IMG/VR virus record: IMGVR_UViG_3300021399_000004
Span: 1-64,000 of that record
Length of the DNA stretch: 64,000 nucleotides
Source: a virus
Direction: 5' to 3' (one strand)
The notes below the pieces were generated by a model. The model did no database searches, had not been told where the DNA came from, and saw nothing but the letters and a program-made list of their open reading frames with translations. How positions within the stretch are numbered: position 1 is the first letter of the stretch; the number at the start of each line of letters is the position of its first letter. Shown here piece by piece: positions 46,072 to 61,500 of this stretch. The translations under genes and the position numbers were made by a program.

Positions 46072-46086
46072 GTTTTTCACTTGTCT
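46059..46086 (-). terminator. intrinsic terminator
   Basis: AGACAAGU-5 nt-ACUUGUCU followed by a run of U. Confidence 0.7.
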
Positions 46087-46097
46087 AAATTATTTAT

Positions 46098-46749: not shown

Positions 46750-46955
46750 TATCCCTTCTCCACTGTTTCTCGAACTGCATCATCAGTAAGCGGTGATTCA
46801 AGTTCATACAGATAAATACTAAGAATATTATCTGCACCATAATACTTAATTAGTTCATCACAGGCGGCGGCGTAAGATGTTGCGCCAAGAATTCCCTTGT
46901 CACTGTTATCCTTATGTTCGACAGTATCAAAATATTCTACCTTGAAACGAAACAT
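46749..46955 (-). CDS. hypothetical protein
   Basis: 68-aa track ORF immediately downstream of tRNA-Gly. Confidence 0.45.
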   Translation of the reverse strand: MFRFKVEYFDTVEHKDNSDKGILGATSYAAACDELIKYYGADNILSIYLYELESPLTDDAVRETVEKG

Positions 46956-46983
46956 AATTTTGTTTTCTCCTTTTTAATTATTA

Positions 46984-47055
46984 AGCGCGATAACGGACTC
47001 GAACCGTCACGGAAACCTTGGAAGGGTTTAATGACTACCATTACATCAATCGCGC
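46984..47055 (-). tRNA. tRNA-Gly(UCC)
   Basis: Acceptor GCGCGAU/AUCGCGC, anticodon stem AAACC/GGUUU with loop CUUCCAA, T arm GACGG-UUCGAGU-CCGUU. Confidence 0.85.
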
Positions 47056-47245
47056 ATAGTATGCCTTATCTAACATACCTGTTGGCGCATACTACCGCAG
47101 CCGAAGCGTTCGTCGTTCACGAGACACTGGTTAGATTTTGAAGTATTAAGTAAGAAGTTCATCTATACTCACTTCTCCCTATCCAGCCGCCGGACTTCAA
47201 CCGACCCGTCACATCCTGTCAATTCAGGCTTTACTCGGCTTGAAG
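47056..47245 (-). ncRNA. structured spacer RNA between tRNA-Asn and tRNA-Gly (unknown)
   Basis: 190 nt with no credible ORF and GC-richer than coding DNA. Several hairpins (AGUAUGC/GCAUACU, GAAGU/ACUUC, a GCUUCGGC tetraloop) and a long-range CUGGAUAG/CUAACCAG helix. Confidence 0.3.
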
Positions 47246-47319
47246 CGCTCCCTGTAGGACTTGAACCTACGACCCATTGCTTAACAGGCAATTGCTGCTA
47301 CCGACTGAGCTAAAGGAGC
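47246..47319 (-). tRNA. tRNA-Asn(GUU)
   Basis: Acceptor GCUCCUU/AGGGAGC, anticodon stem AUUGC/GCAAU with loop CUGUUAA, T arm GUAGG-UUCAAGU-CCUAC, discriminator G. Confidence 0.8.
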
Positions 47320-47338
47320 ATTTCTTTTTTACAATATT

Positions 47339-47367
47339 ATTATACATAAAATTTTATAAAAAGTCAA
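47339..47367 (-). promoter_or_regulatory. promoter TTGACT-N17-TATAAT driving tRNA-Asn, spacer RNA and tRNA-Gly
   Basis: attata at 47339-47344, agtcaa at 47362-47367. Confidence 0.7.
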
Positions 47368-47705
47368 AACATACGCTCATTAATTTTTGTATAATTTTCT
47401 ATTGGAGCTTCAATACAATCATTGCAAAAAGGGTAAATCCAATTACGGCTTAACCACATTGCAGGTTTACCACATACAATACATGTATTAGCAGATTGAT
47501 CCTCATACTTATCTTCTATATCACGAATTGCATCTATTTTACAAGTACTAAAAACATCCATACGGCCCCATTTCTCTTTCATATATGTAACCGTATAAGT
47601 TGGATCAAGCTCTTCACATTCTTTAATCATTTGTCTAGCAAGTTGGTGCCATCCTTCTGGTAAATTATCTAGAAAATAATAATTATCCATATATCCCGCC
47701 ATCAC
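47364..47705 (-). CDS. hypothetical Cys-rich protein
   Basis: 113-aa track ORF inside the RNA island. Confidence 0.45.
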   Translation of the reverse strand: MMAGYMDNYYFLDNLPEGWHQLARQMIKECEELDPTYTVTYMKEKWGRMDVFSTCKIDAIRDIEDKYEDQSANTCIVCGKPAMWLSRNWIYPFCNDCIEAPIENYTKINERMF

Positions 47706-47731
47706 TTCAAATTCGCATTGTCCTTTTTAAA

Positions 47732-47870
47732 TCAAAGCGGATGAGGATTTGCACCTCACATATCAGAGCATTTCGGGCCGTTCGCTTCGCACATTTCTAA
47801 GGCTATACTCACGTTATAGCTATGCCGCCTCTGACTCCCCTTTAAGCGTCTACCTATTCCGCCACCACTT
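47732..47870 (-). ncRNA. Leu-type tRNA-like RNA A lacking an anticodon arm
   Basis: 7-bp acceptor AAAGUGG/CCGCUUU, Leu-type D arm UGGCGGAAUAGGUAGACGC and T arm GUGAGG-UGCAAAU-CCUCAU. These enclose an 83-nt domain closed by UCAGAG/CUCUGA that has no 7-nt U33 loop. Confidence 0.45.
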
Positions 47871-47983
47871 TAAGTCCGTTTTTAATTAGCAGACCAAGCC
47901 TTCTCCCAACAGTCTGCCATGAGCCACACCGTCCGTTATTTACAGCCACGCACTACGGCTTTGACAAGGTGGCTCGCCCCTTA

Positions 47984-48096
47984 ATTATGCGGGTGAGGAT
48001 TTGCACCTCACATGAGCCGCCATAATCCCCGTATGCCAACGGTTCGTCAACAGCTCTTTTGTTGGCTTCCAGCGTCTACCTATTCCGCCACCGCAT
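47984..48096 (-). ncRNA. Leu-type tRNA-like RNA B lacking an anticodon arm
   Basis: Same D arm and T arm as RNA A. Acceptor AAUGCGG/CCGCAUA has an A1xA72 mismatch. The central 57-nt domain is unrelated to that of RNA A and has no canonical anticodon hairpin. Confidence 0.45.
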
Positions 48097-48164
48097 TATG
48101 TAGTAACCCCGTGTTTATTCTTTTGAGCTTTCTGCATACTACTCTGACCAGCTCAATATTTGTG

Positions 48165-48313
48165 GTGTGCTATTACGCCAAATCTCATATTTCTATTATC
48201 TATCGGTACTTCATACTCGTAGGTCATTATAACAAATGTAGCCTACAATACATTTTGCGCCAATAGAGAAATTAAGAACTCCTTAGCTGAATGGCTGCCT
48301 CTAAGCCAACAGT
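48165..48313 (-). ncRNA. repeated structured RNA element X, copy 1
   Basis: Shares the blocks ACUGUNGGCUUAGARGCAGCCAU.CAGCUAAGGAG, GCAAAAUGUAUU and AUUUGGCGUAAUAGCACA with copy 2. Indels break every reading frame. Confidence 0.4.
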
Positions 48314-48402
48314 CCACAATAAATAAGTGGCTGAGGAGACTCTTGTGCGCTCATTTAATCATTTACATTAATCTGTCTAATGAACCACTTTAATTTATAG
48401 AA

Positions 48403-48942
48403 TTACGGCCATTCCCCAAGCGGCATACCAAGGCCAGCGCGCTCAACATTAGTATTAAAAAACACGCCATCAGTTGCAGGACCAGTCAAAAGCTCATCAG
48501 CAATAGTCTCATATAGAGTGCTAATTACACCATGGCAGTCATTTAGATTATCAGCCGCGAATTGCACTACGCAATTATTGAAAACAACATAAGTAGTACC
48601 AATCCACTGATACCCCTCTTCCGCAGGGCAAACAGAATACGCATAAGCAGGATTTCCCTTAAAAGCAGCATCAAATAGTTCAACCTTGCTCTTAAAAGCA
48701 CGGTTACTTGGTACACCATCTACTGCTACCTTTAGGGTAACATTACCAAAAGAAATTTCATCTGGTAGAATTTGCATTAGCGCGGCCACCTTGTCGCCGT
48801 TATTGCAAGCAAATACAATCGAAGGAGTGGAACCACCAAAATCACAGTTACATGCAATCTGAGGATCGCCATCAAATAGTGCTTCAAACTTACGAATTAC
48901 AATAGTCCAAGGAGGAAGAATCTTTAGCCTTGCATTACTCAT
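48403..48942 (-). CDS. hypothetical protein
   Basis: 179-aa track ORF inside the RNA island. Confidence 0.5.
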   Translation of the reverse strand: MSNARLKILPPWTIVIRKFEALFDGDPQIACNCDFGGSTPSIVFACNNGDKVAALMQILPDEISFGNVTLKVAVDGVPSNRAFKSKVELFDAAFKGNPAYAYSVCPAEEGYQWIGTTYVVFNNCVVQFAADNLNDCHGVISTLYETIADELLTGPATDGVFFNTNVERAGLGMPLGEWP

Positions 48943-48983
48943 ATTTTTAACCTCTCTATTCTCAATATACCCTTTCGGGTTAA

Positions 48984-49055
48984 TACCCCATATATGAGTT
49001 GAACATATATAACGTGCTTAGAAGGCACGGGCTCTCTCCGTTGAGCTAATGAGGC
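48984..49055 (-). tRNA. tRNA-Arg(UCU)
   Basis: Anticodon stem CGUGC/GCACG with loop CUUCUAA, D arm GCUC..GAGC, T arm AUAUG-UUCAACU-CAUAU. Confidence 0.8.
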
Positions 49056-49058
49056 ATA

Positions 49059-49131
49059 TGCCCGTGGTGGGAGTTGGACCCTACTTAACTCAGATTAAAA
49101 GTCTGATGCCTGGCCGTTAGGCTACACGAGC
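49059..49131 (-). tRNA. tRNA-Lys(UUU)
   Basis: Acceptor GCUCGUG/CACGGGC, anticodon stem UCAGA/UCUGA with loop CUUUUAA. The T arm is non-canonical (bulged stem, loop UCCAACU). Confidence 0.7.
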
Positions 49132-49137
49132 TTATGA

Positions 49138-49208
49138 CTGGGGTAGCAGGATTCGAACCTACGATGTTGGAGTCAAAGTCCAGAGCCTTACCACTTGGCG
49201 ATACCCCA
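49138..49208 (-). tRNA. tRNA-Gln(UUG)
   Basis: The 5' end UGGGGUAUCGCCAAG.GGUAAGGC resembles E. coli tRNA-Gln. Anticodon loop CUUUGAC, T arm GUAGG-UUCGAAU-CCUGC, discriminator G. Confidence 0.85.
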
Positions 49209-49223
49209 ATAACTTGACCGAAG

Positions 49224-49454
49224 TCAAGTATGATTAGAAACGTCAGATGCGTTAATAGTTATTTTATCGGCAGTAGTAGTAGTAACAACTGGATATGCTG
49301 TCGCCCACCACTCGCCAAGCCATCCTGAGCAATGTGAACAAAATGTCATAAAAGGAGAATTACTTCTGCCGCATTTAGGACAAATCCAACCAGTTGGTTC
49401 TTTTACATCAGGCTTTGGCCGCCAATTAGCACAATTTTCGCAAGTCTTTTCCAT
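49224..49454 (-). CDS. hypothetical zinc-ribbon protein
   Basis: 76 aa with CENC...CPKCG...CSHC. Confidence 0.45.
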   Translation of the reverse strand: MEKTCENCANWRPKPDVKEPTGWICPKCGRSNSPFMTFCSHCSGWLGEWWATAYPVVTTTTADKITINASDVSNHT

Positions 49455-49551
49455 AATATCACCTTTAAAATAAAATGGTGTGGCTTCACGTCACCACAAC
49501 GACATATGGGTTCTTGCGCGGGCTAACCTCTTTTGTTCTAAAAGCCACTAG

Positions 49552-49626
49552 TACCCTCGGTGGGAGTTGAACCCACAGAAAACCACATTTTGAGTGTGGC
49601 GCATATGCCAATTCTGCTACGAGGGC
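49552..49626 (-). tRNA. tRNA with anticodon CAA (Leu codon UUG) but class-I architecture
   Basis: Anticodon stem CCACA/UGUGG with loop CUCAAAA, T arm GUGGG-UUCAACU-CCCAC, only a 6-nt variable region, discriminator A. Confidence 0.6.
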
Positions 49627-49634
49627 ATAAATAG

Positions 49635-50036
49635 TGCGGGTAGCCGGACTTGAACCGGCACGCCTTACGGCAACAGATTTTCTTACTACTCCATATTACT
49701 ATGGCCGCTTTCGCGTTGTAGTCTGGACTATGTTTTCACCTTATCTTACGACTTAGGTGGCTGGTATATAGTCTCTACACATTTATAATAATAGCTTCCC
49801 GCCGCCAGTTCTTCGACTCTTATCGGCGTTTCTGTCGGGCGCGACCCGCATCCCTGTTTTGCATCTTATTCAGGTTTCTCCTGAACCGACCTTCATCGGT
49901 GCTATTATTAATTTAGCTCGGCGTTATCCCATAAGGATTTTCACCGAATTAGCCAGCATTCACTCAGAAAGTTTCCTATTCTGGTGCTCTTTGTTTTACA
50001 AAAGTCTGTGGTGTCTGCCTATTCCACCATACCCGC
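49635..50036 (-). tRNA. tRNA-Leu(UAA) interrupted by a group I intron (exons 50002-50036 and 49635-49681)
   Basis: 5' exon GCGGGUAUGGUGGAAUAGGCAGACACCACAGACUU and 3' exon AAAAUCUGU...GCCGGUUCAAGUCCGGCUACCCGCA join to give anticodon loop CUUAAAA. Class-II variable arm and discriminator A. Confidence 0.85.
49682..50001 (-). ncRNA. group I intron (tRNA-Leu UAA type, about 320 nt, no ORF)
   Basis: Inserted after U34. P1 can form CUU^UU/AAGAG with a U-G pair at the splice site. The intron ends in G. The core strings GUGUAGAGACUA, CCACCUAAG and AUAGUCC match the conserved J6/7-P7-P3 region remembered from Azoarcus and Anabaena tRNA introns. Confidence 0.85.
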
Positions 50037-50195
50037 AAATTACACGGTGACGCTCACAATTTACCGTAATTTCCCTTATAAGGCCCTGAGGTGGACCCTG
50101 GCGTCTTGTTCTGGCCGTCATCAAGCTCTTCGGCCTGCTTACGACGACTCCACGATGAAGAAAAAACTACCACTCAATCGCTTCCTTTCTTATAC

Positions 50196-50224
50196 ATTAT
50201 ATCAAAATTCTTCTTCATTGTCAA
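50196..50224 (-). promoter_or_regulatory. promoter TTGACA-N17-TATAAT driving a ~140-nt leader and intron-containing tRNA-Leu
   Basis: attata at 50196-50201, tgtcaa at 50219-50224. Confidence 0.7.
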
Positions 50225-50351
50225 GATTATCCATGAATAAATTTTCATAATAATCTTCAATTTTAATACCTTGCAAAGTTGAAGGAATTCCTTCAATTAA
50301 CGGATCAATTTCTGGTAGTTCGTCAAAATTTACATAGTATTCATCTCGCAT
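50202..50351 (-). CDS. small acidic hypothetical protein (start trimmed)
   Basis: Track ORF 50202..50387 begins inside tRNA-Ile. The second ATG at 50351 lies 5 nt after the tRNA, whose 3' GGGGAGGA can act as the SD. Confidence 0.35.
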   Translation of the reverse strand: MRDEYYVNFDELPEIDPLIEGIPSTLQGIKIEDYYENLFMDNLDNEEEF

Positions 50352-50355
50352 ACAA

Positions 50356-50428
50356 TCCTCCCCCTTGGAATTGAACCAAGGACACACGACTTATAAGGAC
50401 GCTGCTCTCACCGCTGAGCTAGAGGAGG
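50356..50428 (-). tRNA. tRNA-Ile(UAU)
   Basis: Acceptor CCUCCUC/GGGGAGG, D arm GCUC..GAGC, anticodon loop CUUAUAA on a stem with one mismatch, T arm CUUGG-UUCAAUU-CCAAG. Confidence 0.65.
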
Positions 50429-50429
50429 A

Positions 50430-50615
50430 TTAATCCTCCACATTTAAACTTTTGCTAATAGTATCTTCATGATACCCCAGTGCGAGTGAAAAGTACCGAA
50501 ACTTATCTACTAATTCCGAATATGTTAGACCTTCATCTCCTGTAGAAAACTTGTAATGAATTTCATCACCGTCACTGTTCGTATAAACAAATTCGTACTG
50601 TTCTTTGAAATCCAC
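50430..50615 (-). CDS. hypothetical protein
   Basis: 61-aa track ORF behind a consensus promoter. Confidence 0.4.
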   Translation of the reverse strand: MDFKEQYEFVYTNSDGDEIHYKFSTGDEGLTYSELVDKFRYFSLALGYHEDTISKSLNVED

Positions 50616-50639
50616 TCTTATCCCCTCGCTATCATATAT

Positions 50640-50668
50640 ATTATATCAAAATTTTTATTGCAAGTCAA
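50640..50668 (-). promoter_or_regulatory. promoter TTGACT-N17-TATAAT
   Basis: attata at 50640-50645, agtcaa at 50663-50668. Confidence 0.7.
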
Positions 50669-51117
50669 CTTCTTTGCCATTCAAAAATTTCATAATTATG
50701 TTCTTGAAACCATCTATGGATTATTGTTCTTTCACTACATTTCTTTTCTGGTTTTTCGTAAACCATTAAAGCAAAATCTACACTATCTAACCCCTCTCCA
50801 GCAGCAATTTTATCCGACATATCTTGTAATTTATCAATAAAAGCATGAAAATTAATTTTACATAATTGCTTATAATATACTCTTAGAAATTGACAATCTT
50901 CTGGATGAGGAGGCTCACAGCATCCATTACATAAGTGATTACATGCTGGGCCAGGAATAAGTGGCGGAATATTCAAACCAATAATAACTCCACGGGCATC
51001 TTTCCCCTACGTTTCAGGCGTCCCAAAATACTTTGGCGGCCAGACCGCAGTTGATAATGGTACTAAATTTTTAGGGAAAAAGCGCACCTAATAGAAATAG
51101 GATGTATAAATCTTCAT
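50665..51117 (-). CDS. hypothetical protein (2 in-frame TAG)
   Basis: Track ORF 50665..50976 extends through two TAGs to the ATG at 51117 (MKIYTSYFY-TAG-VRFF...). Coupled by ATGA to the upstream ORF. Confidence 0.45.
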
Positions 51118-51323
51118 TCCACTAAATCAACCTTCCATCCAAAATAGTTATTATATACAATTGTATTAGCTGTTCCACAGACAGGACAAGTTATATAATC
51201 TTCTTCTTGATTATATTGCATGCTTGTCTATACGTCGTCTTTAGTAAATTCTAGAATAGACCCGCAACGCTTACAAGACATTCGTCCAACGCTAGGACGA
51301 TAGGCGCGTTCAATAACTCTCAT
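51114..51323 (-). CDS. hypothetical zinc-ribbon protein (1 in-frame TAG)
   Basis: 69-aa ORF with CKRCGS...CPVCG, open only if TAG is sense. Confidence 0.4.
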
Positions 51324-51341
51324 TTATATCTCTCCTTTTAA

Positions 51342-51428
51342 CGACACTAGCACGGCTCGAACGTGCATACCCTGTTACAAGTAACCGCAGATTAGCAATC
51401 TGGTGCGTTACCATTCCGCCATAGTGTC
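51342..51428 (-). tRNA. tRNA-Ser(GCU)
   Basis: Acceptor GACACUA/UAGUGUC, anticodon loop UUGCUAA, long variable arm with GUUAC/GUAAC stem, T arm GCACG-UUCGAGC-CGUGC, discriminator G. Confidence 0.8.
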
Positions 51429-51436
51429 ATTTTAGA

Positions 51437-51576
51437 TGTGCTATTACGCCAAATTTCTTATCTATTGCCCACCGCACATCATACTTATAGGACATATAAT
51501 TGTAAGCCTATAATACATTTTGCACGAATGGAGAAAAGAAAACTCCTTAGCTGATGGCTGCTTCTAAGCCTACAGT
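51437..51576 (-). ncRNA. repeated structured RNA element X, copy 2
   Basis: Homologous to 48165-48313. Lies between the degenerate Ser-like tRNA and tRNA-Ser(GCU). Confidence 0.4.
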
Positions 51577-51587
51577 TCTAAAATAAG

Positions 51588-51672
51588 CGACAGTACCAAG
51601 ACTCGAACTTGGGCACCCGTTAAGATGGCTACGGATTAGCAATCAGGTGCGTTACCATTCCGCCATAGTGTC
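51588..51672 (-). tRNA. degenerate tRNA-Ser(GCU)-like paralog
   Basis: The first ~40 nt are identical to tRNA-Ser 51342-51428 except for one base. The 3' half is different: the anticodon stem keeps only 3 pairs, the acceptor has a C-C mismatch, and the T arm CCAAG-UUCGAGU-CUUGG is intact. Confidence 0.4.
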
Positions 51673-51678
51673 AAAAAA

Positions 51679-51753
51679 ATCGAAGATGTGCGATTTGAAC
51701 GCCAACTAGTCGTCCCAAGCGACTCGTGTTACCAGATTACACTACATCCTCGA
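51679..51753 (-). tRNA. tRNA-Pro(UGG)
   Basis: Anticodon stem AGUCG/CGACU with loop CUUGGGA, acceptor UCGAGGA/UCUUCGA. The T stem is weak (3 pairs). Confidence 0.6.
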
Positions 51754-51768
51754 TATTTTTAAAATAAA

Positions 51769-51853
51769 CAGCCCGCTTGGGAGTCGAACCCAATCTGTCG
51801 CTTCAGAGGCTGTGGTTTTAGAGACCACCCGTGCAGCCGCACACCTACGGGCT
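51769..51853 (-). tRNA. suppressor tRNA, anticodon CUA (reads UAG), class-II architecture
   Basis: Acceptor AGCCCGU/GCGGGCU, anticodon stem GUGGU/ACCAC with loop CUCUAAA, an 18-nt variable region containing a UCUG/CAGA stem, T arm UUGGG-UUCGACU-CCCAA, discriminator G. D region is GCGGCUGCACGG. Confidence 0.8.
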
Positions 51854-51886
51854 ATATAAGTGAGGTTTCCCTCACTTTCTATAATA

Positions 51887-51915
51887 ATTATACCAAAATT
51901 TTAATTAAATGTCAA
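51887..51915 (-). promoter_or_regulatory. promoter TTGACA-N17-TATAAT directly upstream of suppressor tRNA(CUA)
   Basis: attata at 51887-51892, tgtcaa at 51910-51915. The leader hairpin AGUGAGGGAAACCUCACU (51858-51877) precedes the tRNA. Confidence 0.7.
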
Positions 51916-52354
51916 ATGTATCACTTGCTAAAACAATCATATAATAACTATTTGGTTCAACATACTCAGTATTTACTAGAATACTTCCATCTTCATTTAA
52001 AGTACCATTACATACCTCAATAGTAATTAAATCCATAGAACAAAATACAAACTTAATAATTTGATCTTCCTTATATTCGCAAGGGAAACTCCAAGTCATT
52101 GTTGGATAAATATCATCTACTTCAACTGTTATGATTTCATAAATACCGTAATAGTCATCTTCAAATAGCTTATTAAAATCAACGACTTCACTTACAGTAT
52201 TATAAATATCTTCCCATTCTTCATCCAACTCAACTACATGAAAAGGCAAATCAGGCTAACACCAATATAAATCTTCAAGAGAAGGACTATCCGCCGCAAA
52301 ACAAGTCGTTATAATCATCATTAATAGCAACCAAATACTTAAAAATCTCTTCAT
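51905..52354 (-). CDS. secreted hypothetical protein (1 in-frame TAG)
   Basis: Track ORF 51905..52249 extends through one TAG to the ATG at 52354, adding the signal peptide MKRFLSIWLLLMMIITTCFA. Confidence 0.45.
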
Positions 52355-52383
52355 AATTATCATCTTCCTTTTTATTTTTTAAA

Positions 52384-52456
52384 AGCCGCCCATGAGACTT
52401 GAACTCATAACCTATTGCTTACAAGGCAATTGCTCTGCCGATTGAGCTAGAGCGGC
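52384..52456 (-). tRNA. tRNA-Thr(UGU)
   Basis: Acceptor GCCGCUC/GGGCGGC, D arm GCUC..GAGC, anticodon stem AUUGC/GCAAU with loop CUUGUAA, T arm AUGAG-UUCAAGU-CUCAU. Confidence 0.9.
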
Positions 52457-53066
52457 GAAAGAGGATACTCTACTTAACAATTATAGTGACCTTCGTCATA
52501 CTTGCAGCATTCTTCAATTATATTCAACCACTACAGAATTAAAGGCTGAGCCATGAGTAGCGACCTCATAACTTCTTTAATCCGCTTTCGCCTAGTGTAG
52601 GAGGGGTTGTTTACCCTCAAGTTTCAGCCAAACCATTCAGCAAATACGATAAAAAAGCTTACCCCGCTTTTGTTTATCATGCTAAATTTCTGTCTTGGCC
52701 TACTCCAACTTTAAACCTTTCTTATATGCCATTTCTGGCTTTCATCGACAGTAACCGCTTGTTGGTCTTTCCTGAGTTTGTACTGGCTACCACCCCAATA
52801 CCTTATCAGGATTCGGCATTATCTATTCAATACTGCTGTCTATTATGCGGCCGAAAGGAATAATGTTTTTAATTGCGAATACTCAAGCGCCTATCCTTAA
52901 TCTTTGGAGTTTCTCCTTTATCGCTAATCATTGCTGATTTCGCGGCTAGATAATAAAAGTATCCTTCTATCATTGCTAGCGATTGTCCGGATAGCCCAAG
53001 CTACGTGGTTAGCGTATCTGCACTTGGTTCTAAAATTGCTAAGTAGAATATCCTCCCTCTCAGTAT
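52457..53066 (-). ncRNA. large structured RNA 1 (~610 nt; ROOL-like candidate by size and context only)
   Basis: Starts just downstream of consensus promoter 53073-53101 and ends at tRNA-Thr. No ORF on the transcribed strand. Visibly GC-richer. The ends pair over 19 bp (53037-53055 with 52472-52490), and the two differences between the arms are both G-U compatible. Confidence 0.55.
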
Positions 53067-53072
53067 AATACT

Positions 53073-53101
53073 ATTATACCAAATTTTTCTTTAAAAGTCA
53101 A
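53073..53101 (-). promoter_or_regulatory. promoter TTGACT-N17-TATAAT driving large RNA 1 and tRNA-Thr
   Basis: attata at 53073-53078, agtcaa at 53096-53101. Confidence 0.7.
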
Positions 53102-53113
53102 ATATTTGACTAG

Positions 53114-53186
53114 TGGACTGACGGGGAATCGAACCCCGACTCTCTGCTTGCAAGGCAGAAGTGCTAACCATTATCACTACCAGCCC
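53114..53186 (-). tRNA. tRNA-Ala(UGC)
   Basis: G3-U70 wobble in the acceptor, anticodon stem UCUGC/GCAGA with loop CUUGCAA, T arm GGGG-UUCGAUU-CCCC. Confidence 0.9.
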
Positions 53187-53386
53187 ATATTCACTTACTT
53201 TCGTTGTCTTTTTATTATAGTGTGCTGCTAAATGACTAAGCCACATATCTTTTAACTCCACTAAAGCACATTTGGTTTAGCATTTCCTTACTTGGTCTAC
53301 AGTTAAAAGCCGGTGGTAGTTTAGTGAGAATCCATCCTTACCGCACACTAGGCCTATTTTATTACACGCAGAGCGCCCATGCGTAC
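53187..53386 (-). ncRNA. structured RNA between the split tRNA and tRNA-Ala (unknown)
   Basis: Nested long-range helices UAGUGUGC/GCACACUA (53343-53350 with 53218-53225) and CUUUUAACU/AGUUAAAAG (53301-53309 with 53249-53257). No ORF. Confidence 0.4.
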
Positions 53387-53530
53387 TGGCGCTCCCCATA
53401 GGATTTGAACCTATAACCCTGCGGTTAGGGCAGAGGCGAGAATTGAACTCGCAACGTGGGCGTCCCTCACACGATTACCAAATCGTCTCTCTGCTACAGC
53501 CGCATGCTCTACCGATTGAGCTAGAGGAGC
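53387..53530 (-). tRNA. class-I tRNA (Asn GUU if joined at canonical positions) with a 68-nt insert in the anticodon loop; CCA encoded
   Basis: Perfect acceptor GCUCCUC/GGGGAGC, D arm GCUC-AAUCGGUA-GAGC, T arm AUAGG-UUCAAAU-CCUAU and anticodon stem UGCGG/CCGCA. The stem strands are 75 nt apart instead of 7. Confidence 0.6.
53428..53495 (-). ncRNA. tRNA-shaped insert within the anticodon loop of the 53387-53530 tRNA
   Basis: Acceptor-like AGCAGAG/CUCUGCC, D-like hairpin ACGAU-UUGGUA-AUCGU, short hairpin GUGAGGGACGCCCAC, canonical T arm GCGAG-UUCAAUU-CUCGC, then one discriminator-like C. Confidence 0.5.
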
Positions 53531-53569
53531 ATAGAATGGGGATTTTATTTTTCCCTCATTCACAATATA

Positions 53570-53598
53570 ATTATACATTATTTTTTACTTTAAGTCAG
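53570..53598 (-). promoter_or_regulatory. promoter CTGACT-N17-TATAAT driving the split tRNA
   Basis: attata at 53570-53575, agtcag at 53593-53598. The leader hairpin GAAUGAGGGAAAAAUAAAAUCCCCAUUC lies at 53534-53561. Confidence 0.6.
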
Positions 53599-53602
53599 AT
53601 TT

Positions 53603-55315
53603 TTAATAGTAGAAATAATATTGTTCTGGCAAATTTTTATTGTCATTTAATTCTCGTACAAAGCGTTTAATATTTGGTCTTGGAATGTATTGCGATAACT
53701 TTTTAATTCGTCTACTAAAGAATATTGATTGCTAATTTTCATTCTCTCGGCTATTTTCATCTGCATATTTCTTATAGCTTTGTAGATAAAATCGTCTTAT
53801 ATCTTTCCAATATTGCTCTAAAAATTCAGGATGGTTTTTAACACAACGAAGAAAGTAATTATACAAATCAATTAAGAAAATATTCATTTTTTCTATTATA
53901 ATACTAGTGTCTACTTTTGCTTTTTCGCATAAGTTAATACAGTAAATACCATTATCTACAATGCCTGGCAAAGCTGTATATAAAAAATTTTTATTATCCT
54001 TATATGTTAATGAATTTTTATTTACTACAGTTTTATATATTGGCAAATCATAATGCCGAATATGATATGTCTATTCTACTCTATTGTAGTCATCAATAAT
54101 AGCATAGCAAGTCAAATTTATACCACAGTCTTCTGCCGCAAAAGAACCAACACCTTGATTATATGGTAAAATATTATAAACTTCTAAGAACTCTCTACGA
54201 TATACTTTACCGGGTGTAGATGGTTCATATGCACTTTGTACTATATTATCTGCGCCGTTAATCCAACTCCATTCATAAATGTCCATAACTCTATTATTGT
54301 CTAATTCATCTTTTACAGCTAGTAAACAATATTTAGATAAAATAATATCGCCGCAATCTACAAAAGTTAAATATGTACCGTGTGTATTTTGCATGCCGAT
54401 GCGTCTGGCATTGCCGGGCCCCTAATTCTTTTCTAATTTAATCAACTATATTAATGGAAACTATTTAATTATATTAGTATAATCAACTGATGAAGCGTCA
54501 TCAATTACTACAATATGTAACCACTCATATTCTGGATAATAAACAGATTTTAAAGTACGTATTAATCCTTTTTCATCATTATAACTAGGTATAATAATAT
54601 CTAAATCTATCTTATCCGATTGATTATATATTATTTTATTATTAGGGATAGACATATATTTATTAAAAATAGGATATTTCTACCATTCATGGTTCCCTGC
54701 AAAATGATTTATTTTTCTACTTTTTGCTTTCTAAAAATCAGTAGAATCATTCATATTATAGTCAGGTGGTAAATTTAAAATATAACCTTGACATAATTTA
54801 TTTAAAGCATTTTGCTCTGGAAAAATTTCATAATGATTATTAATATAATTAATTAGTTCATCATCTTTTTTATCATCTCGTAATTTTTTTAGATTCATTA
54901 ACATAACGCCGCAGTTAATATCTAAAAACATTTCAGTACAATTAGAAGGCTAAGACGAAGCGGCAATGTAATAATCACTAATATCTATATCCCATAATTC
55001 TGAAATATTTTCATTTACAATTGTATCAACATCTAATGACAAAACTTTATCTAAGTCCGGGAATATTTTTCCTAAAGCAACTCGTATTAAGGCCATATAA
55101 GTAAATTCACTTTTAAAATTAGGCCCATGCTTATCAAAATAAGTCTAATTACTTACATTTAATGTTTTTGTTTTTGGCGGTAATTCATATGGAAATACGT
55201 CATCTTCAATTAGAAAATAAATCTATTCAACATTTGAATGAATAAGTAATGATTTTGCTGCACCAATCATATATTTGTAAAGGTTTCTGGTGCCTGTATA
55301 TACCGCTGTCCTCAT
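53603..55315 (-). CDS. fused family-8 / family-2 glycosyltransferase (about 10 in-frame TAG)
   Basis: Four track fragments (53732..54046, 54071..54394, 54461..54655, 54731..54931) plus the N-terminus share one frame, and every junction is TAG. GT8 motifs LSLDVDTIV and NCGVMLMNLKKLR. GT2 motifs IIIPSYNDE, VVIDDASS and GPGNARRIG. If the TAG at 53732 terminates, the end is 53732. Confidence 0.55.
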
Positions 55316-56010
55316 AATATTTCCTCCCATTTCAAATTGATATAATATCGTACAATGGGTTCTACAAAGAAATAATCACGAATACCAGCATAATGATAAA
55401 TTTTTCTTTTATTAGGATTATAATTCATAAATAATGGATGAGAATTATATTCTGTTGGTAATTCTAGAATATGATTCTTATATACCTTATTAAGAGTATC
55501 CTATTCGGCGTACTCTTCTCTATAATGATTTAATCTAAAAATCATTTTTTCATCCATTTTATCTTCACGAATTTTTTTTAAATTACATAATAATACTCCG
55601 CCGTTTACATATAATCCATTTTTATTAAATTCTGGTGTATCTCTTACGCCAGCAATATAATAATTTGATATATCAATATCCCAAAGTTCATCTATATTTT
55701 CAGTAACAATTGTATCAATATCTAAAGATAGAATCTTATCTAACTCTGGGAATATTTTAGAATAGACAGAGCGGATAAGAACCATATAGCCACCCCATCC
55801 ATCATACCAATTCATGCAAGTTTCTTTCTTAAACCATTGCTAATTACTGATATTAATACACTATACTTTATCTGGTAGTTCATAAGGGAAAATATCATCT
55901 TCAATTAATAAAAATATCTAATCAATATGAGAGTTCATTAGTAATGATTTTATAGCAGGTATCATTTTATAATACACATTTCGTGTTCCACTATATGCCG
56001 CTACTTTCAT
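55312..56010 (-). CDS. family-8 glycosyltransferase (4 in-frame TAG)
   Basis: ATG at 56010 to TGA at 55312. Contains LSLDIDTIV (DxD) and NGGVLLCNLKKIRE. Confidence 0.6.
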
Positions 56011-56044
56011 ATTACACTTCCTTAAATAAAATTAAAGTTTATAA

Positions 56045-56117
56045 TACCCGATGTGAGATTTGAACTCAACATTTCAGGCTTGAAAGGCCTGCGTGCTTAC
56101 CTTTACACAAATCGGGC
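56045..56117 (-). tRNA. tRNA-Glu(UUC)
   Basis: Anticodon stem CAGGC/GCCUG with loop CUUUCAA, acceptor GCCCGAU/AUCGGGU. The T arm has one bulged U. Confidence 0.8.
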
Positions 56118-56950
56118 ATATAGCGGTTTGATAACTCAGCCGCAACTGAGTAGGCTACACTGTGTGACGGATGCGGCTCGGCCTCTACGGATACCGTCGT
56201 AACGTTATCCTACCGCTTTACCAGTTTACCCCTTGTACTTTGGGCTGGCGAGGACATTCAAGCCTGATGTTTCCTCCCATTCCGTTTTTCACCTATAGAG
56301 TATCTGGCTACTCTATAAGAAGTCGCTACGCTTCTTGCCCCAATCACTCACTGACTGGCGTCATAGCCTTTTTAATGTCTAGACCATGTAACGACAACTA
56401 GCGATGAGAACCATTTATTCTCATTTTCTGGAACACTAGGTACTTTATTTTACTCCTCTTTTGTATAGCGCCGAGTAAGTTCGGTATAAGTACGCAACCC
56501 TTCACTTTGCGCTTTCTTGGCTGTTCTTCAAACTCCATTTAACCCATTCTTCTCATATGCTGAAATTAATCATATTAGCTACTTATGATCCGACTCAAAT
56601 CCTTCTTCAGCATAACAGCATTTGGGCACCATTACTCTGCCTGCCTACCAGAGTCGCAGCAGTTTGGCCCTGCTTGCCGACACCGCATATTTATATACCG
56701 CGAACGATGTGCGGTTTGGCATGTACCATTTAACTATTTATTAATCGCTCTGAAATACGTACCAAAGGAGCGATGGCTTTTCCCTATCCCTTAAGGCACG
56801 GCCGCGCTTTTAAATAATGCCGCCCTATATCTCTTCAGGTCTGGTCTTTGCCAATCCCCACTTCCCATTTCCGAAGTGTAGCGCACCATGTTAGTTTGGC
56901 TCAACACGGATAGCCGCAGCGTAGATTAATGTCCCTACTGTCTTGGACAA
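56118..56950 (-). ncRNA. large structured RNA 2 (~830 nt; GOLLD-like candidate by size and context only)
   Basis: Fills the whole interval between tRNA-Asp and tRNA-Glu in one promoter-driven unit (promoter 57096-57124). No ORF on the transcribed strand. GC-richer, with many hairpins, for example the 9-bp UAUAGAGUA/UACUCUAUA at 56294-56317. Confidence 0.55.
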
Positions 56951-57026
56951 TGGCGACTTCGGCGGGAATTGAACCCGCGATTTCCAGTGTGACAGACTGG
57001 CGCGATAACCACTACGCTACGAAGTC
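56951..57026 (-). tRNA. tRNA-Asp(GUC), CCA encoded
   Basis: Acceptor GACUUCG/CGAAGUC, anticodon stem CCAGU/ACUGG with loop CUGUCAC, T arm GCGGG-UUCAAUU-CCCGC, then GCCA. Confidence 0.9.
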
Positions 57027-57095
57027 ATAAAGGCGGTTTAAACTATTTTTAGTCTCATTACCGCCAAGTTTAAGGACTCTCAACCTTACATATAT

Positions 57096-57124
57096 ATTAT
57101 ACTAAATTTTTTAATTAATGTCAA
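57096..57124 (-). promoter_or_regulatory. promoter TTGACA-N17-TATAAT driving tRNA-Asp, large RNA 2 and tRNA-Glu
   Basis: attata at 57096-57101, tgtcaa at 57119-57124. The leader contains a GGCGGU...ACCGCC hairpin. Confidence 0.7.
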
Positions 57125-57277
57125 TTAATCATCATAACACTCGGTTTCAATACCAAGTTCCTCACAGAAGTCAGATTCAATTTCATACCAAGTCTCATGC
57201 ATGGCATAGTCATACGCATAATTAGTGTATTCTTCAGAATGGGCCTCACATACGAAATCATCCAGATAGTTAATCAT
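57125..57277 (-). CDS. small acidic hypothetical protein
   Basis: 50-aa ORF with a GAAGGAGG SD behind consensus promoter 57304-57332. Confidence 0.35.
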   Translation of the reverse strand: MINYLDDFVCEAHSEEYTNYAYDYAMHETWYEIESDFCEELGIETECYDD

Positions 57278-57303
57278 ACTACCTTACCTCCTTCTGTATC
57301 TAT

Positions 57304-57332
57304 ATTATACTTAAATTTTTAATAAAAGTCAA
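57304..57332 (-). promoter_or_regulatory. promoter TTGACT-N17-TATAAT
   Basis: attata at 57304-57309, agtcaa at 57327-57332. Confidence 0.7.
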
Positions 57333-57434
57333 GAAAAAATCATCTAAATTTTTACTCTTTGAACTTTCTCTTTAAAAATAGGTTGTGAGGCTATCGTTAA
57401 ATTCAAGTAAAAATTTCAAAATTTAGATGAAATT

Positions 57435-57463
57435 GTTACCTTTATTCGCGTAATAAAGGTAAC
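57435..57463 (-). terminator. terminator-like 12-bp hairpin ending the RNA downstream of tRNA-Met
   Basis: GUUACCUUUAUU-5 nt-AAUAAAGGUAAC followed by AAUUUCAUCUAAAUUUU. Confidence 0.5.
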
Positions 57464-57783
57464 GGCTAAGAATTTAACATAGTCTTAGCAAACTACGTGT
57501 TTATATCGAAAACAAACCGAGCAGTTATCGTACTGGGTTCTCAACGGCCACGAGTTCGTCGGGTTGGTTCCACCCCGCCGACATACATTTACGAAGATGC
57601 AGGATTACGGCATGATGTTGCTCCGGAACAAACTTATATGGTCATGCGCTCATAGCTACTTATATAAGGAAAAGTAGCCTAAACCGCTATCTTTTCTCCG
57701 CGGTAAGTTAAGATAGCAAAACTTTCCGTAACGACTGTTGCGCACTTAAGTTTCTCCATTATAGATGGAGGCTTCTCGCGCAG
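57464..57783 (-). ncRNA. ~320-nt structured RNA downstream of initiator-like tRNA-Met (unknown)
   Basis: No ORF and GC-richer. Bounded by the tRNA at its 5' side and a 12-bp terminator hairpin at its 3' side. Internal helices include GUCGG...CCGAC. Confidence 0.4.
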
Positions 57784-57855
57784 TTGCGGGAAGAAGAATC
57801 GAACTTCTATCTCCGGGATATGAACCCAGTCATTTTACCTTTACACTATCCCGCG
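57784..57855 (-). tRNA. initiator-like tRNA-Met(CAU)
   Basis: 5' CGCGGGA with a C1xA72 mismatch, anticodon stem ending in GGG/CCC, loop UUCAUAU, 3' end CCCGCAA as in bacterial tRNA-fMet. The D stem is weak. Confidence 0.7.
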
Positions 57856-57897
57856 ATATTGGGTTGATTACGGCTCAACCCATAAGCCGCAATCACC

Positions 57898-58245
57898 TTA
57901 TAGTAGATTTAGTAACTTCGGAAAATCAAAAATATCGAAAAGACTAGGGACTTCCTTAATATCATTGGTAGAAAAATGATAGGTCTTATACTTGGAAATA
58001 AAATCTTCCAATTCCTTCCGATACGCATTTTGTGCTTCAACCATTGCCTTGCGCGCGGCATCAACACGCTCTGCGGCGGCCTTGCGCTCGGAAGCGGCCT
58101 TTTCCTTCTCTGCCTTGACGCGGGCCTCTTCTCTTTCCTTCAATACCTTTTGACGATTAGCCTCTTCCTGTGCCTTAAATTCGGCTTCGAGACATTCCTT
58201 TTCAGTATTGTATACCTTATTAAGTTTTTCGCTGTAGTATTTCAT
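57898..58245 (-). CDS. hypothetical coiled-coil protein
   Basis: 115-aa track ORF, Lys/Glu/Ala-rich. It is the first gene of the minus-strand block behind promoter 58323-58351. Confidence 0.5.
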   Translation of the reverse strand: MKYYSEKLNKVYNTEKECLEAEFKAQEEANRQKVLKEREEARVKAEKEKAASERKAAAERVDAARKAMVEAQNAYRKELEDFISKYKTYHFSTNDIKEVPSLFDIFDFPKLLNLL

Positions 58246-58322
58246 ATTAATCTACTCCTTCGCAGTTCCTTACCTGCTTTCTTTATTTCAAGGGAGGTTC
58301 CTTACCCTCTCTTGATAAATAT

Positions 58323-58351
58323 ATTATAGCATAGTAATTTAAAAAAGTCAA
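58323..58351 (-). promoter_or_regulatory. promoter TTGACT-N17-TATAAT, first of the minus-strand block
   Basis: attata at 58323-58328, agtcaa at 58346-58351. Lies in the divergent intergenic region. Confidence 0.7.
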
Positions 58352-58513
58352 ATGTTTAAGGGAAAGAATTTTACAATGAATGGAAGAGATTTTTATATAT
58401 ATTTATTTTGTATCTAAATACCTATTTATTAGGATTATACGTTGAGGTAAAAGGCGTATTTATCCTACTTTCTAGAAAGATGGATTTATTTTTGAGAAAA
58501 AGGAGGTAATGAT

Positions 58514-61500
58514 ATGGCTGATAATCAATTTGAAACTAGGAATTCCAGATGGAAGGAAAATGATGTTATCAACGAAGAGGACCTTAACCGAATTGAAGAT
58601 AATTTGGATTATTTGAAAGAAAAGATTGATACATTTAATAATGTCGGCGCCGGGAGTCTTAGTGAGATACTTAATAGTAAAGCTGATGTTAGCGATCTGT
58701 AGACTTTATAGGGTAGCGTTAATACTCTAAGTTCACAATTAAGCGGAAAAGCTAATGTTAGTGATTTAAATGGTAAAGCAAGTTAGTCAGCTGTTGATAA
58801 TCTTACTACTTTGATTAATAGTAAGGCTAATGCTTCTGATGTTAGCTCACTCAATAGTTAGGTTGGCGGACTTGCCACTACTGTTGCAAGTCATGCTAGT
58901 GCAGTAAGTGAAGTGAATAGTGCGCATAGGAATGGAGTAACTAATGATACATTAAGTCAGCGTTTTAGCGCGATTGAAAGTGACATTACAGCGATTGAAA
59001 ATACCATTGGTAGCTCGTCTAGCGGCTCATTAGCCAATCGAGTAACCGCCGTTGAAGGTGCTATTGGTAATGGATATGATAGTGAACATACAGTAGCTGC
59101 CGCAATTTCTGGCATTAATAGTGCTTTGAGTAATAAAGCGGATACCAGTGCTGTTAATGAGGCGTTAGCTGGTAAAGCTTCTAGTAGTGATGTAGAGACT
59201 CTTGATACTCGTTTAGACGCGATTGATGGAGGTAGTGCTTTAACTGGTAGCACTTTGGTTGCGAGGGTTGGCGCGGTTGAATCTAGTCTTACTGGCGCCG
59301 GTGGTATTGATGCACGACTTGATGCTATTGATGGTGGAAGCGCATTAGATACAACAAATGGTACTTTGGCCGCGAGAGTTACGACTGTTGAAGGTATTGC
59401 GAGCACTGCGTTATAGGCTTCTGATATTGCAACATTAAATAGCGATGTAGCGGCATTAAAAAATAAGGATACGATTGTAATGACAGTTGCTGCGTTTGAG
59501 GCTCTTGATGCAACTAGCACAAACACAAATAAAGATGCCGATTATATTGTGGGTCCATATACTGAGGAAGATGACGCTTATAAATATTATCGTATAATCG
59601 GAACAACAAAAACATTAATTAGCGGTGGTGGTAGTGGCACCAATAACGCTGAAATCGTAACTTCTTGGCCGCCATCTGATCCGGATGAAGATACAGATTA
59701 TTATCGTTTTGACTCAGCCTTAAGCTCATATCGCCATTATCGTTATATTAATGGCAATCTTTATCTTATAGGTGGCGATTTATATACAAAAGCAGAAGTA
59801 GATAATAAAATTGCTACAGCACAAGCAGCCCTTGAAGGTGAAAATAAACGCTATTATGCTACTTACAAGACAGAAACTATTGAAATAAATGGTGAAACTC
59901 AATAGCAAGAAAATATGTTTACTTTATATGAAGTTAATGCTGATGATACTGAACATACTAACCCACAAATAGTTAGTCGTTTTTAGATTCAAGGTGGTGG
60001 TGGCAGTAGTATCCCGGCATCTAATCTTACTATTACTCCAATTACTACTTCTCCAGTAGTGGCCTTAGCTTCAGATAAATTATTAATTACTATTCGTTAT
60101 TCATCCACTGATGAAAGTACCGGTTCTGAATATGACGGTACATATACGTGGCGCATTGGCGGGCAAGTTGTAGAATCTAATACGATTTACAATGGTGAAC
60201 GCACCTTTGATTTGACTCAATATTGCTCTATTGGTCAAGCTAGAAATGCTGTATTGTCCATTACTGACGTTACTGGTACAGTTGTAACTCGGGCTTGGAC
60301 TGTCCAACGTATTAATGTAACTATGACTTCAGATTTCAATGATTCATATATTTACGATACTGGTACTAGTGTACAATTTAGATACAATGTTCAGGGACAA
60401 GTAAGTAAAGAAGTCCATTTTATATTTGACGGTACAGAACTTAGTACTACAACAATAACTGACGCCGGTGATAAAATTTATACATTACCAGCGCAAACAA
60501 CTTCTGGAGCGTATTTATTAGAAACTTATTTGATAGCTACTGTTGGAAATAAAACTTTAACAGTACCAGAAAAGCATATATTTAAAGATATTTTATATAA
60601 ATCTTCTACATCAACGGCTCCAATTATTGGCTGCGCTTATCGTGGAGTTACACAAGAAGTTAAACAATTTACTGTTTTGAATATACCATATACAGTATAT
60701 GATCCATTAAATAAATATCCTACTATTACATTAAAAGTAGGTAATACAGTAGTTTCTGAATTCGTCGCTGGTGAAACTATTACTCCTTGGGCCTATCGAG
60801 CGGCAGAATTAGGAGAACAGACATTGACTATTTCTTGCCGCAATACTAGCGTTACAATTAAAGTAAAGGTGACTGAACTTCCAGAAGGCATTCGCCCTAT
60901 TACAGATAACTTAGTTTTTGATTTTAATCCCGCTGGTAAGTCGAATTAGAATTCAGTTGATAAAAATTGGGCGCAAAATAATATTACATTGACTACTTCA
61001 AATACATTCGACTGGAATAATGGTGGATATTAGATTGACGCTGATGGTAATTCTTATTTCTGCGTTAAGGCTGGCGACACAGCTACAATCAATTATAACT
61101 TGTTTGGCCGCGATGATATTAAAGCTCAAGGTGCAAACTTTAAATGTATATTTAAAGTAACAAATGTACGCGATGTAAATTCGACTTTCTTATCTTGCTT
61201 AGCTACTAATAATAGCACACAAATCGGTCTAGAAATGAAAGCCCATGAAACTAACATATATACTTCCGGTGGCACCTTAACACAGCCTTATAGTGAAGAT
61301 GATATTATTGAATTTGAATATAATATTAATGCCCTTACTGGTGGAACATCATATATTATGGTATACGAAGATGGCGTAGGCGCTCGTCCATTGATTTATG
61401 ATGATACTTATATTTTACATTAGAATGGGGAAAATGTTTCTCCAATTACTATTGGTTCTAAAGATTGTGATATTCATATTTATCGTATGAAGGCTTATGC

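Follow-up and report, generated by a model that had tools for sequence, protein, structure and literature searches.

ROOL RNAs were described in 2017 as 581-nt RNAs of phages, prophages and other loci that often lie near tRNAs and are possibly co-transcribed with them (Weinberg et al., PMC5737381). The ROOL env-120 from the cow rumen, 659 nt long, forms a D4 homo-octameric nanocage of ~280 Å (Kretsch et al. 2025, PMC12286853). The linker of env-120 (nt 414–464) and the equivalent regions of the other solved ROOLs are disordered and lie inside the cage. Kretsch et al. propose that the cage may enclose the linker or else other molecules, for which they name tRNAs and ribosomes as examples (PMC12286853). 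Octamers have also been reported for ROOL-Efa of Enterococcus faecalis and ROOL-Firm of Firmicutes bacterium CAG:227 (Ling et al., Nature 2025, as described in the commentary PMC12515178); according to that commentary, the octamer stays undisturbed when a tRNA precursor is attached to the ROOL 3′ end. GOLLD, a large ornate RNA of phages and bacteria, is likewise found next to or inside phage tRNA arrays and self-assembles into a cage, in its case a D7 14-mer, with an internal disordered linker (PMC12286853, PMC5737381). The ROOL family, its phage and tRNA context and its three-dimensional structure are already published.

The locus analysed here lies in a 64,000-nt stretch of viral DNA (positions 1 to 64,000 of IMG/VR record IMGVR_UViG_3300021399_000004), hereafter the window. 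Its ROOL shares with env-120 the same helices, two pseudoknots, the positions of bridges B1, B4 and B6, the place of the linker and a phage origin beside tRNAs. The two RNAs have the loops GGAUAC, AAUAGAC, GAAA, CUGAAUG, GUAAnCAA, UCGCU, GCUCAG, AGUGGnUGAAUA and CGAAGG in common. They differ in length (~595–603 nt in the window vs 659 nt), the window linker being shorter (52 nt), and in the closing helix P1, which spans 26–30 bp in the window vs 17 bp in env-120. ROOL-Efa and ROOL-Firm, which we compare through the description in the commentary, belong to the same family, and the engineered fusion of a tRNA precursor to their 3′ ends mimics the natural order of ROOL followed by tRNA-Thr in the window; they are bacterial or prophage copies, whereas the window ROOL resides in a large recoded phage. 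GOLLD, in contrast, is unrelated to the window ROOL in sequence and secondary structure.

Identity of the ROOL RNA gene

The Rfam ROOL model RF03087 matches the minus strand of the window at 52468–53051 with 328 bits (gathering score 99.1, E 1.3e-76), and the match covers model positions 1–574 of 574 without truncation. An earlier note on this DNA had proposed a ROOL-like candidate here on the basis of size and context only and had suggested this model search as a check; the proposal is correct, because the match is full length and lies far above the gathering score. The RNA measures 595 nt, or 603 nt (52457–53059) if four further P1 pairs form, close to the family average of 581 nt. The segment is richer in GC (0.40) than its flanking genes (0.29 and 0.27), as the same note had observed, and than the window as a whole (0.35). 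The minimum-free-energy fold of the 610-nt RNA has a z-score of −9.7. A blastn search of the window RNA against 50,697 GenBank phage records returned no match, and no exact match to env-120 was found among viral contigs.

The segment is a genuine, well-preserved ROOL RNA gene that adds one more member to an established family. Nothing about it departs from that family, and what sets this otherwise ordinary example apart is only a strong promoter of its own and a tRNA gene that abuts its 3′ end. With the identity of the segment settled, the case confirms that a ROOL RNA can be picked out by reading raw sequence. The locus adds modest context to the family in the form of a dedicated, conserved promoter and a tRNA lying 0–4 nt from the closing helix. 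The features of the locus are collected in Table 1.

Table 1. Positions of the ROOL RNA, its structural elements and its neighbours in the window
Feature	Position	Strand	Remarks
ROOL RNA	52461–53055	−	595 nt, from outer P1 pair to outer P1 pair
P1, 5′ arm	53030–53059	−	Core 53055–53030, possible extension to 53059
P1, 3′ arm	52457–52486	−	Core 52486–52461, possible extension through UUUC to C52457
Bridge B1, 5′ partner	53007–53010	−	AACC in L2 loop CUAACCA; kissing loop with GGUU
Bridge B1, 3′ partner	52631–52634	−	GGUU; starts at the G of conserved CUGAAUG
Bridge B4, partner in L8	52789–52792	−	UGGU in loop L8 (GGGUGGUAGC); conserved inter-subunit kissing loop
Bridge B4, partner in J6/8	52763–52766	−	ACCA in J6/8 (AAGACCAACAA); pairs with UGGU
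Pseudoknot A, 5′ strand	52747–52751	−	CUGUC; corresponds to env-120 349–352 with 406–409
Pseudoknot A, 3′ strand	52690–52694	−	GACAG; at the 5′ edge of the variable linker
GAAA-tetraloop hairpin	52727–52740	−	GCCA-GAAA-UGGC; counterpart of the hairpin that makes contact B2 in env-120
Variable linker	52643–52694	−	~52 nt; low-information region of the model; 44–78 nt in relatives
Pseudoknot B, 5′ strand	52637–52640	−	CUGA of conserved UGCUGAAUG; pairs with UCAG at 52546–52549
Pseudoknot B, 3′ strand	52546–52549	−	UCAG of conserved GCUCAGCC; partner of CUGA
L18 loop	52559–52563	−	UCGCU; self-complementary GC for symmetric bridge B6 between half-shells
Promoter, sigma-70/sigma-A type, extended −10	53073–53101	−	TTGACT, 17-nt spacer ending TGG, TATAAT
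tRNA-Thr(UGU)	52384–52456	−	69.3 bits; abuts the ROOL 3′ end, gap 0–4 nt
tRNA-Ala(UGC)	53113–53186	−	Directly upstream of the promoter; ends 11 nt before the −35 hexamer

Promoter, terminal helix and flanking tRNAs

The ROOL promoter, which the earlier note had placed correctly, matches the consensus at 11/12 positions and carries the TG of an extended −10 element. Exact TTGAC-N15-TGnTATAAT sites number 12 in the window, this one included, where 0.02 would be expected, and every one is on the minus strand. From the spacing of its elements, transcription is predicted to start near A53066. No terminator-like site was found in 51500–54000, so transcription should continue past ROOL through tRNA-Thr and into the small ORF that follows. 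Transcription into tRNA-Thr had been put forward in the earlier note; tRNA-Thr lies 4 nt past the core helix.

The closest relatives of the window ROOL, L017 (IMG/VR 3300028888_000681), L001 (3300021255_001748) and L058 (3300028797_000134), are ~75% identical to it over the model columns. They share its long P1 and its promoter block, AAATATTTGAC...TGnTATAAT, which is conserved upstream of ROOL in all three, together with the small signal-peptide ORF downstream and the placement of ROOL inside a tRNA island. They differ from the window in the tRNAs at either side: the upstream tRNA is Ile(UAU) in the relatives vs Ala(UGC) in the window, and their ROOL is followed by the downstream ORF with no intervening tRNA, where the window has tRNA-Thr. 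The downstream ORFs of the window and L017 are homologous (29% identity, E 4e-6), which makes tRNA-Thr the element that the window has in addition. In the examined parts of the L017, L001 and L058 contigs, no suppressor tRNA appeared. The tRNA island that contains the window ROOL comprises 16–18 tRNAs; the 16 recovered by the default scan are all on the minus strand, at 46984–57855.

The core of P1 consists of two 26-nt arms delimited by a repeat finder, 88% of whose positions form Watson–Crick pairs. With strict ungapped extension the helix reaches G53059:C52457 and a length of 30 bp, interrupted by a single U-U mismatch, and C52457 is the base directly before tRNA-Thr. The helix score of 27 exceeds that of each of 5000 shuffles, which average 8.5 and reach at most 17. 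The 19-bp terminal helix described in the earlier note is contained in this longer helix: its arm sequences, its 5′ arm (53055–53037) and its two G·U differences hold, whereas the 3′ arm, given as 52490–52472, lies in fact at 52479–52461, an 11-nt slip. Within those 19-nt arms the only two non-Watson–Crick positions are U53048·G52468 and G53039·U52477. The model pairs 7–22/556–571 correspond to 53045–53030 with 52486–52471, and 15 of these 16 pairs are canonical in the window; all 15 covary, with compensatory changes on both sides in relatives. This bears out the view of the earlier note that the G·U differences reflect selection on RNA pairing. The P1 arms of L017 form a perfect 20-bp complement whose sequence differs from that of the window.

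Since tRNA-Thr begins 0–4 nt past P1, the 3′ end of ROOL is probably made by RNase P at the tRNA-Thr cleavage site, a step in keeping with the established action of the enzyme on pre-tRNAs. If P1 extends to C52457, the tRNA-Thr leader would be fully base-paired, and RNase P could therefore be slowed. L017, L001 and L058 have no abutting tRNA, and RNase P thus cannot be the general 3′-end mechanism in this clade. Two layouts meet in the window, where the 5′ end of ROOL has a promoter to itself and the 3′ end is followed by a tRNA.

Distances between the outermost P1 pair, set by strict ungapped helix extension, and same-strand tRNAs were measured in 52 full-length viral ROOLs, 32 of which are tRNA-flanked; the set is redundant and by our own grouping amounts to about a dozen clades. 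The upstream tRNA ends ≤5 nt from the outer pair in 25/32 flanked cases (median 1), and the downstream tRNA starts ≤10 nt from it in 25/32 (median 7). One clade of 17 loci has no tRNA nearby. The closing helix of these viral ROOLs is thus usually butted against tRNAs on both sides, which offers a testable model for the formation of ROOL ends.

We consider it highly probable that the window ROOL is a promoter-driven gene whose product is released by RNase P, clamped at its ends and assembled as an octameric cage during infection. Its expression, maturation and assembly go a step beyond the computed identity and structure, and we infer them, the last by analogy with the solved ROOLs. Host RNA polymerase would start near A53066 from the near-consensus extended −10 promoter and would read through ROOL into tRNA-Thr and the small ORF. 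RNase P would cut at G52456, the 5′ end of tRNA-Thr, freeing the ROOL 3′ end, and the helix of 26–30 bp that clamps both ends should protect them from exonucleases. Eight copies would then self-assemble, protein-free, into a hollow cage of ~28 nm, as in the three ROOLs solved by cryo-EM. The cage would be held together by B1 (AACC/GGUU), B4 (UGGU/ACCA), the GC pair of L18 (B6) and contacts of the A-minor type, and would enclose the 52-nt linker. Our working hypothesis is that during infection ROOL may work, probably alongside the phage tRNA set, as an abundant, stable RNA compartment or scaffold tied to the translation apparatus.

A possible, if unlikely, reading is that ROOL may be an integral unit of tRNA operons and not just their neighbour, occupying a ‘tRNA slot’ and acting on or with the tRNAs co-transcribed with it. 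If this were so, its ends would be cut by RNase Z or exonucleases at the upstream tRNA and by RNase P at the downstream tRNA, and the cage might transiently carry eight tethered pre-tRNAs. Alternatively, as a recoded phage takes over translation, it might protect the phage tRNAs against anticodon nucleases of the host, and the window would represent a natural counterpart of the engineered ROOL–tRNA fusion.

A further alternative, which we regard as improbable, is that ROOL stays fused to tRNA-Thr. The cage assembled from such a chimera would display eight tRNA-Thr on its outside and serve as a tRNA carrier or protective scaffold; in phages with tRNAs at both ROOL ends, it would display tRNAs at both. 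The gap of 0–4 nt, in which P1 can pair up to the −1 position of tRNA-Thr, is consistent with this, and it is established biochemistry that a base-paired leader makes a poorer RNase P substrate. Abutment of tRNAs on P1 in most tRNA-flanked viral ROOLs points the same way, tRNAs have been raised as possible cargo by Kretsch et al. (PMC12286853), and, in the account given by the commentary, a suppressor-tRNA precursor fused at the 3′ end is compatible with the octamer, its cargo being displayed radially (PMC12515178). As such a precursor leaves the octamer undisturbed, the unprocessed chimera remains a minor rival. Against it, tRNA-Thr is a normal, high-scoring tRNA of the kind whose precursors RNase P processes essentially without exception, and a 4-nt single-stranded UUUC leader remains if the weak outer pairs, two of them G·U, stay open. 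The nearest relatives, moreover, keep the same ROOL without an abutting tRNA, and the 17-locus clade lacks tRNAs altogether in its vicinity. Release by RNase P is accordingly the reading we prefer. Nothing at this locus changes what is known of ROOL, and it would matter beyond the context described only if a physical link to tRNA proved functional.

Conserved structure and inter-subunit elements

A scan of IMG/VR for the pattern of the ROOL 3′ domain yielded 81 loci, and all ten of the loci picked via a local nhmmer search gave full-length ROOL matches (10/10, 285–347 bits). Structural comparison was based on eight model-anchored ROOL alignments, comprising the window and seven relatives, with every base verified against the DNA. 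The structure line of cmscan contains nesting brackets only, amounting to 159 pairs, and pseudoknots were tested separately.

Every consensus helix (P1–P19 and the multistem junctions) is present in the window ROOL. Canonical pairing is retained at 132/150 ungapped consensus pairs (88%), the highest value among the eight ROOLs, and 18 consensus pairs are non-canonical. Both-sided compensatory changes occur in at least one of the seven relatives at 110/159 consensus pairs; relative to L017, the nearest relative at 75% identity, the window shows 27 both-sided and 14 one-sided pair changes. It keeps 159 of the 191 highly conserved (upper-case) consensus positions (83%), the same fraction as other ROOLs, and, of the columns that do not vary among seven diverse ROOLs, every one (101/101).

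Local motifs and the residue names given in the publication, rather than absolute numbers, guided the mapping of env-120 contacts to the window; in the published covariation table, the entry for the CUGA/UCAG pseudoknot seems to be shifted by one. Pseudoknot A forms 5 bp in the window (CUGUC/GACAG) and covaries across relatives, reading CUUGCAC/GUGCAAG in L045, UCUCGUG/UGCGAGA in L026 and UUUGCC/GGCAGA in L024; covarying pairs have been published for its env-120 counterpart as well (PMC12286853). Both strands of pseudoknot B are invariant in 8/8 sequences; the covarying pairs published for it in env-120 are 458–461 with 578–581 (PMC12286853).

The inter-subunit contacts assessed from sequence were B1, B2, B4 and B6. 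B1 in env-120 pairs AAUC with GAUU (residues G465–U468 with C41–A38; PMC12286853). The window shows AACC/GGUU (4 bp) in its place, a compensatory change, and other relatives carry CACC/GGUG (L024) or UAUC/GAUG (L026 and L073). B4 is shifted by one base relative to env-120 and comprises only 4 bp in the window, vs 5–6 bp in several relatives, among which it covaries as UGACA/UGUCA, UAGCA/UGCUA, UUGGA/UCCAA and UGGUA/UACCA. For B6, which in env-120 is G565:C566′, the window offers the GC of its L18 loop, and the GAAA hairpin corresponds to the one whose adenosine makes the A-minor contact B2 in env-120 (PMC12286853). L15 and the GUAAACAA loop are present as well, and a weak hairpin and a U-run lie inside the linker at 52671–52651. 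In shuffle tests of one contact of 4–7 bp at a time, B1, B4 and pseudoknot A give p values of 0.04–0.8 and for the most part fall short of significance; their weight therefore rests on fixed-register covariation across only eight sequences. The window RNA carries counterparts of the sequence elements that the solved ROOL cages use for assembly.

These data also bear on whether the segment might be a decaying or functionless ROOL remnant, or a mere structured spacer in a tRNA operon, which we judge very improbable. The non-canonical consensus pairs would fit such decay, as would the fact that no ROOL has a known function and that ROOL is, by a statement in PMC12286853, non-essential in one bacterium, L. 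salivarius. Decay is difficult to reconcile, however, with a larger share of intact consensus pairs than in any other ROOL compared, with full retention of the invariant columns and with differences from its relatives that are compensatory, not disruptive. Each tertiary and quaternary element tested is intact, and the gene has a dedicated, conserved, near-consensus promoter.

Coding capacity and phage context

No ORF longer than 34 aa was found on the transcribed strand of the RNA segment, as had been claimed before, and none of at least 50 aa occurs on the minus strand of 52363–53091 even when TAG is read through. Substitutions in the segment follow base-pairing and not codon structure. The GOLLD model gave no match at E ≤ 1 in 52300–53250 or in 46000–59000, and the Rfam models for group II introns, HEARO, RNase P RNA and tmRNA, proposed as checks in the earlier note, gave none at E ≤ 1 under permissive filters save one. 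This sole additional Rfam match is a chance-level one to permuted tmRNA (16.6 bits, GA 47, E 0.51) that overlaps tRNA-Ala. Size and tRNA context are common to GOLLD, and standard-code ORF scans could miss genes in a phage that reads TAG as glutamine, yet the Rfam models, the ORF scan and the substitution pattern together lead us to reject another large RNA (GOLLD, HEARO, group II intron, RNase P RNA or tmRNA) or a hidden recoded gene, the probability of which is close to nil.

Elsewhere in the window, a conserved non-coding block at ~56445–56716 has no Rfam match and a fold z-score of −0.44. Two homologous loci only were found for it, and their core is invariant, so that there is no covariation to test.

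In-frame TAG codons occur in many minus-strand genes of the window, and homologs of TAG-containing ORFs were sought with TAG translated as X. The TAG of a PhoH-like protein lines up with a glutamine conserved fully or almost fully among 120 homologs, which indicates that the phage uses the TAG-to-Gln code. This code is already known. Reading of TAG as serine, considered in view of a tRNA(CUA) with a tRNA-Sec-like shape and a long variable arm, was ruled out by the same alignment. ROOL thus occurs in a phage that reads TAG as glutamine. The window further encodes a phage replication module with a PolC/YorL-like polymerase, topoisomerase II, NrdD, a DnaB-like helicase, RNA and DNA ligases and a dUTPase. 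The phage that carries the ROOL is thus large and recoded from TAG to Gln, and its replication module resembles those of Firmicute phages, the polymerase being 36% identical to that of SPbeta-like Bacillus phages.

ROOL within the tRNA array

Across 52 full-length viral copies of the large phage RNA ROOL (including those at the IMG/VR loci L003, L018, L023, L045 and L075), we measured the distance between the closing helix, P1, and the neighbouring tRNAs. In most of the tRNA-flanked viral copies, the outermost P1 pair lies 0-2 nt past the 3' end of the upstream tRNA and 2-9 nt ahead of the 5' end of the downstream tRNA. Given these short distances on both sides, ROOL fills a 'tRNA slot' of the array. 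A separate clade of 17 ROOL loci has a 29-bp P1 and no nearby tRNA.

The variable linker of the window ROOL carries a weak terminator-like hairpin, which falls below the terminator-scan threshold because it has just two G-C pairs; if active, it would cut ROOL short within the stretch enclosed by the cage. Past ROOL, the first ORF in both the window and its near relative L017 is small, with a product whose N-terminus resembles a signal peptide. The two products show weak homology (29% identity, E 4e-6), and the window ORF contains one in-frame TAG. Other Rfam RNAs were found upstream of ROOL at two of the compared loci, namely a drum RNA in L017 and, directly upstream, a short match to the tmRNA model in L024; Rfam searches returned no drum match in the window.

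Coordinates of the features described in this part
Feature	Contig	Position	Strand	Remark
Exact promoters (starts)	window	2379, 10281, 15320, 20748, 22997, 34032, 35136, 50196, 50640, 51887, 53073, 58323	-	
Conserved block	window	~56445-56716	-	
Homologous block	L017	9569-9841		
Homologous block	L082	~11500-11650		
Small signal-peptide-like ORF	window	51905-52363	-	first ORF past ROOL and tRNA-Thr
Homologous small ORF	L017	4651-5106	-	first ORF past ROOL
ROOL linker hairpin	window	52651-52671	-	AAAAGC-GGGGUAA-GCUUUU, then UUAU
Drum RNA	L017	6116-6209	-	RF02958, 53.9 bits
Short tmRNA-model match	L024	2471-2553	-	51.2 bits
cow-rumen-4 RNA motif match	window	58261-58316	-	RF02948, 38.5 bits against GA 48.5, E 0.0016, sub-threshold
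tRNA-Leu(UAA) with intron	window	49634-50036	-	ARAGORN, introns allowed
Group I intron	window	49702-50011		RF00028, 50 bits, exactly the threshold; anticodon loop of tRNA-Leu(UAA)
Candidate second tRNA-Asn(GUU)	window	53387-53530	-	ARAGORN, introns allowed
tRNA(CUA)	window	51768-51854		sole tRNA with CUA anticodon
In-frame TAG, 14	window	40619-43294	-	
In-frame TAG, 10	window	53603-55375	-	
In-frame TAG, 8	window	29057-30253	-	
In-frame TAG, 7	window	35200-36444	-	

Stop-codon recoding and unusual tRNAs

The phage is stop-codon recoded: in-frame TAG is present in many window genes, and the DNA polymerase and topoisomerase genes are among those with none. At three TAG positions of the PhoH-like protein, the aligned homologs carry Gln in 120/120, 106/120 and 120/120 cases; TAG is therefore read here as a Gln codon. 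For a Gln tRNA, the tRNA(CUA) has an odd build: it is 87 nt long, its acceptor stem has 8 bp and its variable arm is long. Its top Rfam match is tRNA-Sec (34 bits, below threshold).

Two further tRNAs were called by ARAGORN when introns were allowed. The tRNA-Leu(UAA) is called only under this setting, with a 320-nt intron at position 36, and part of the viral locus L050 matches its tRNA/intron region at 93-97% identity. The candidate second tRNA-Asn(GUU) has a 68-nt insert in its anticodon loop and ends in ...GGTTCAAATCCTATGGGGAGCGCCA, including an encoded CCA; default ARAGORN made no call here and the Rfam tRNA model scored only 25.3 bits. It could be a split tRNA, an intron-bearing tRNA or a false call.

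A conserved non-coding block and the promoter map

Within an 830-nt ORF-poor spacer running from tRNA-Asp (57026-56951) to tRNA-Glu (56118-56044) lies a block that is 88% identical to its L017 counterpart across 276 nt, a conservation exceeding that of ROOL. A core of ~125 nt is near-invariant across three phage contigs, and the block is flanked by tRNAs in every case. The alignment contains a 2-nt indel, which argues against a coding role. An Rfam search of the block returned no match (lowest E 2.4), and its fold z is only -0.44.

The window contains 12 exact TTGAC-N15-TGnTATAAT promoters, against 0.02 expected by chance, and every one is oriented with the genes. Allowing one or two mismatches adds 10 sites, and together the exact and mismatched promoters provide a ready map of transcription units for the host polymerase. 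Immediately downstream of the consensus promoter at 58351-58323 is the cow-rumen-4 match, a hint of an origin in the rumen or gut and of a further small RNA.
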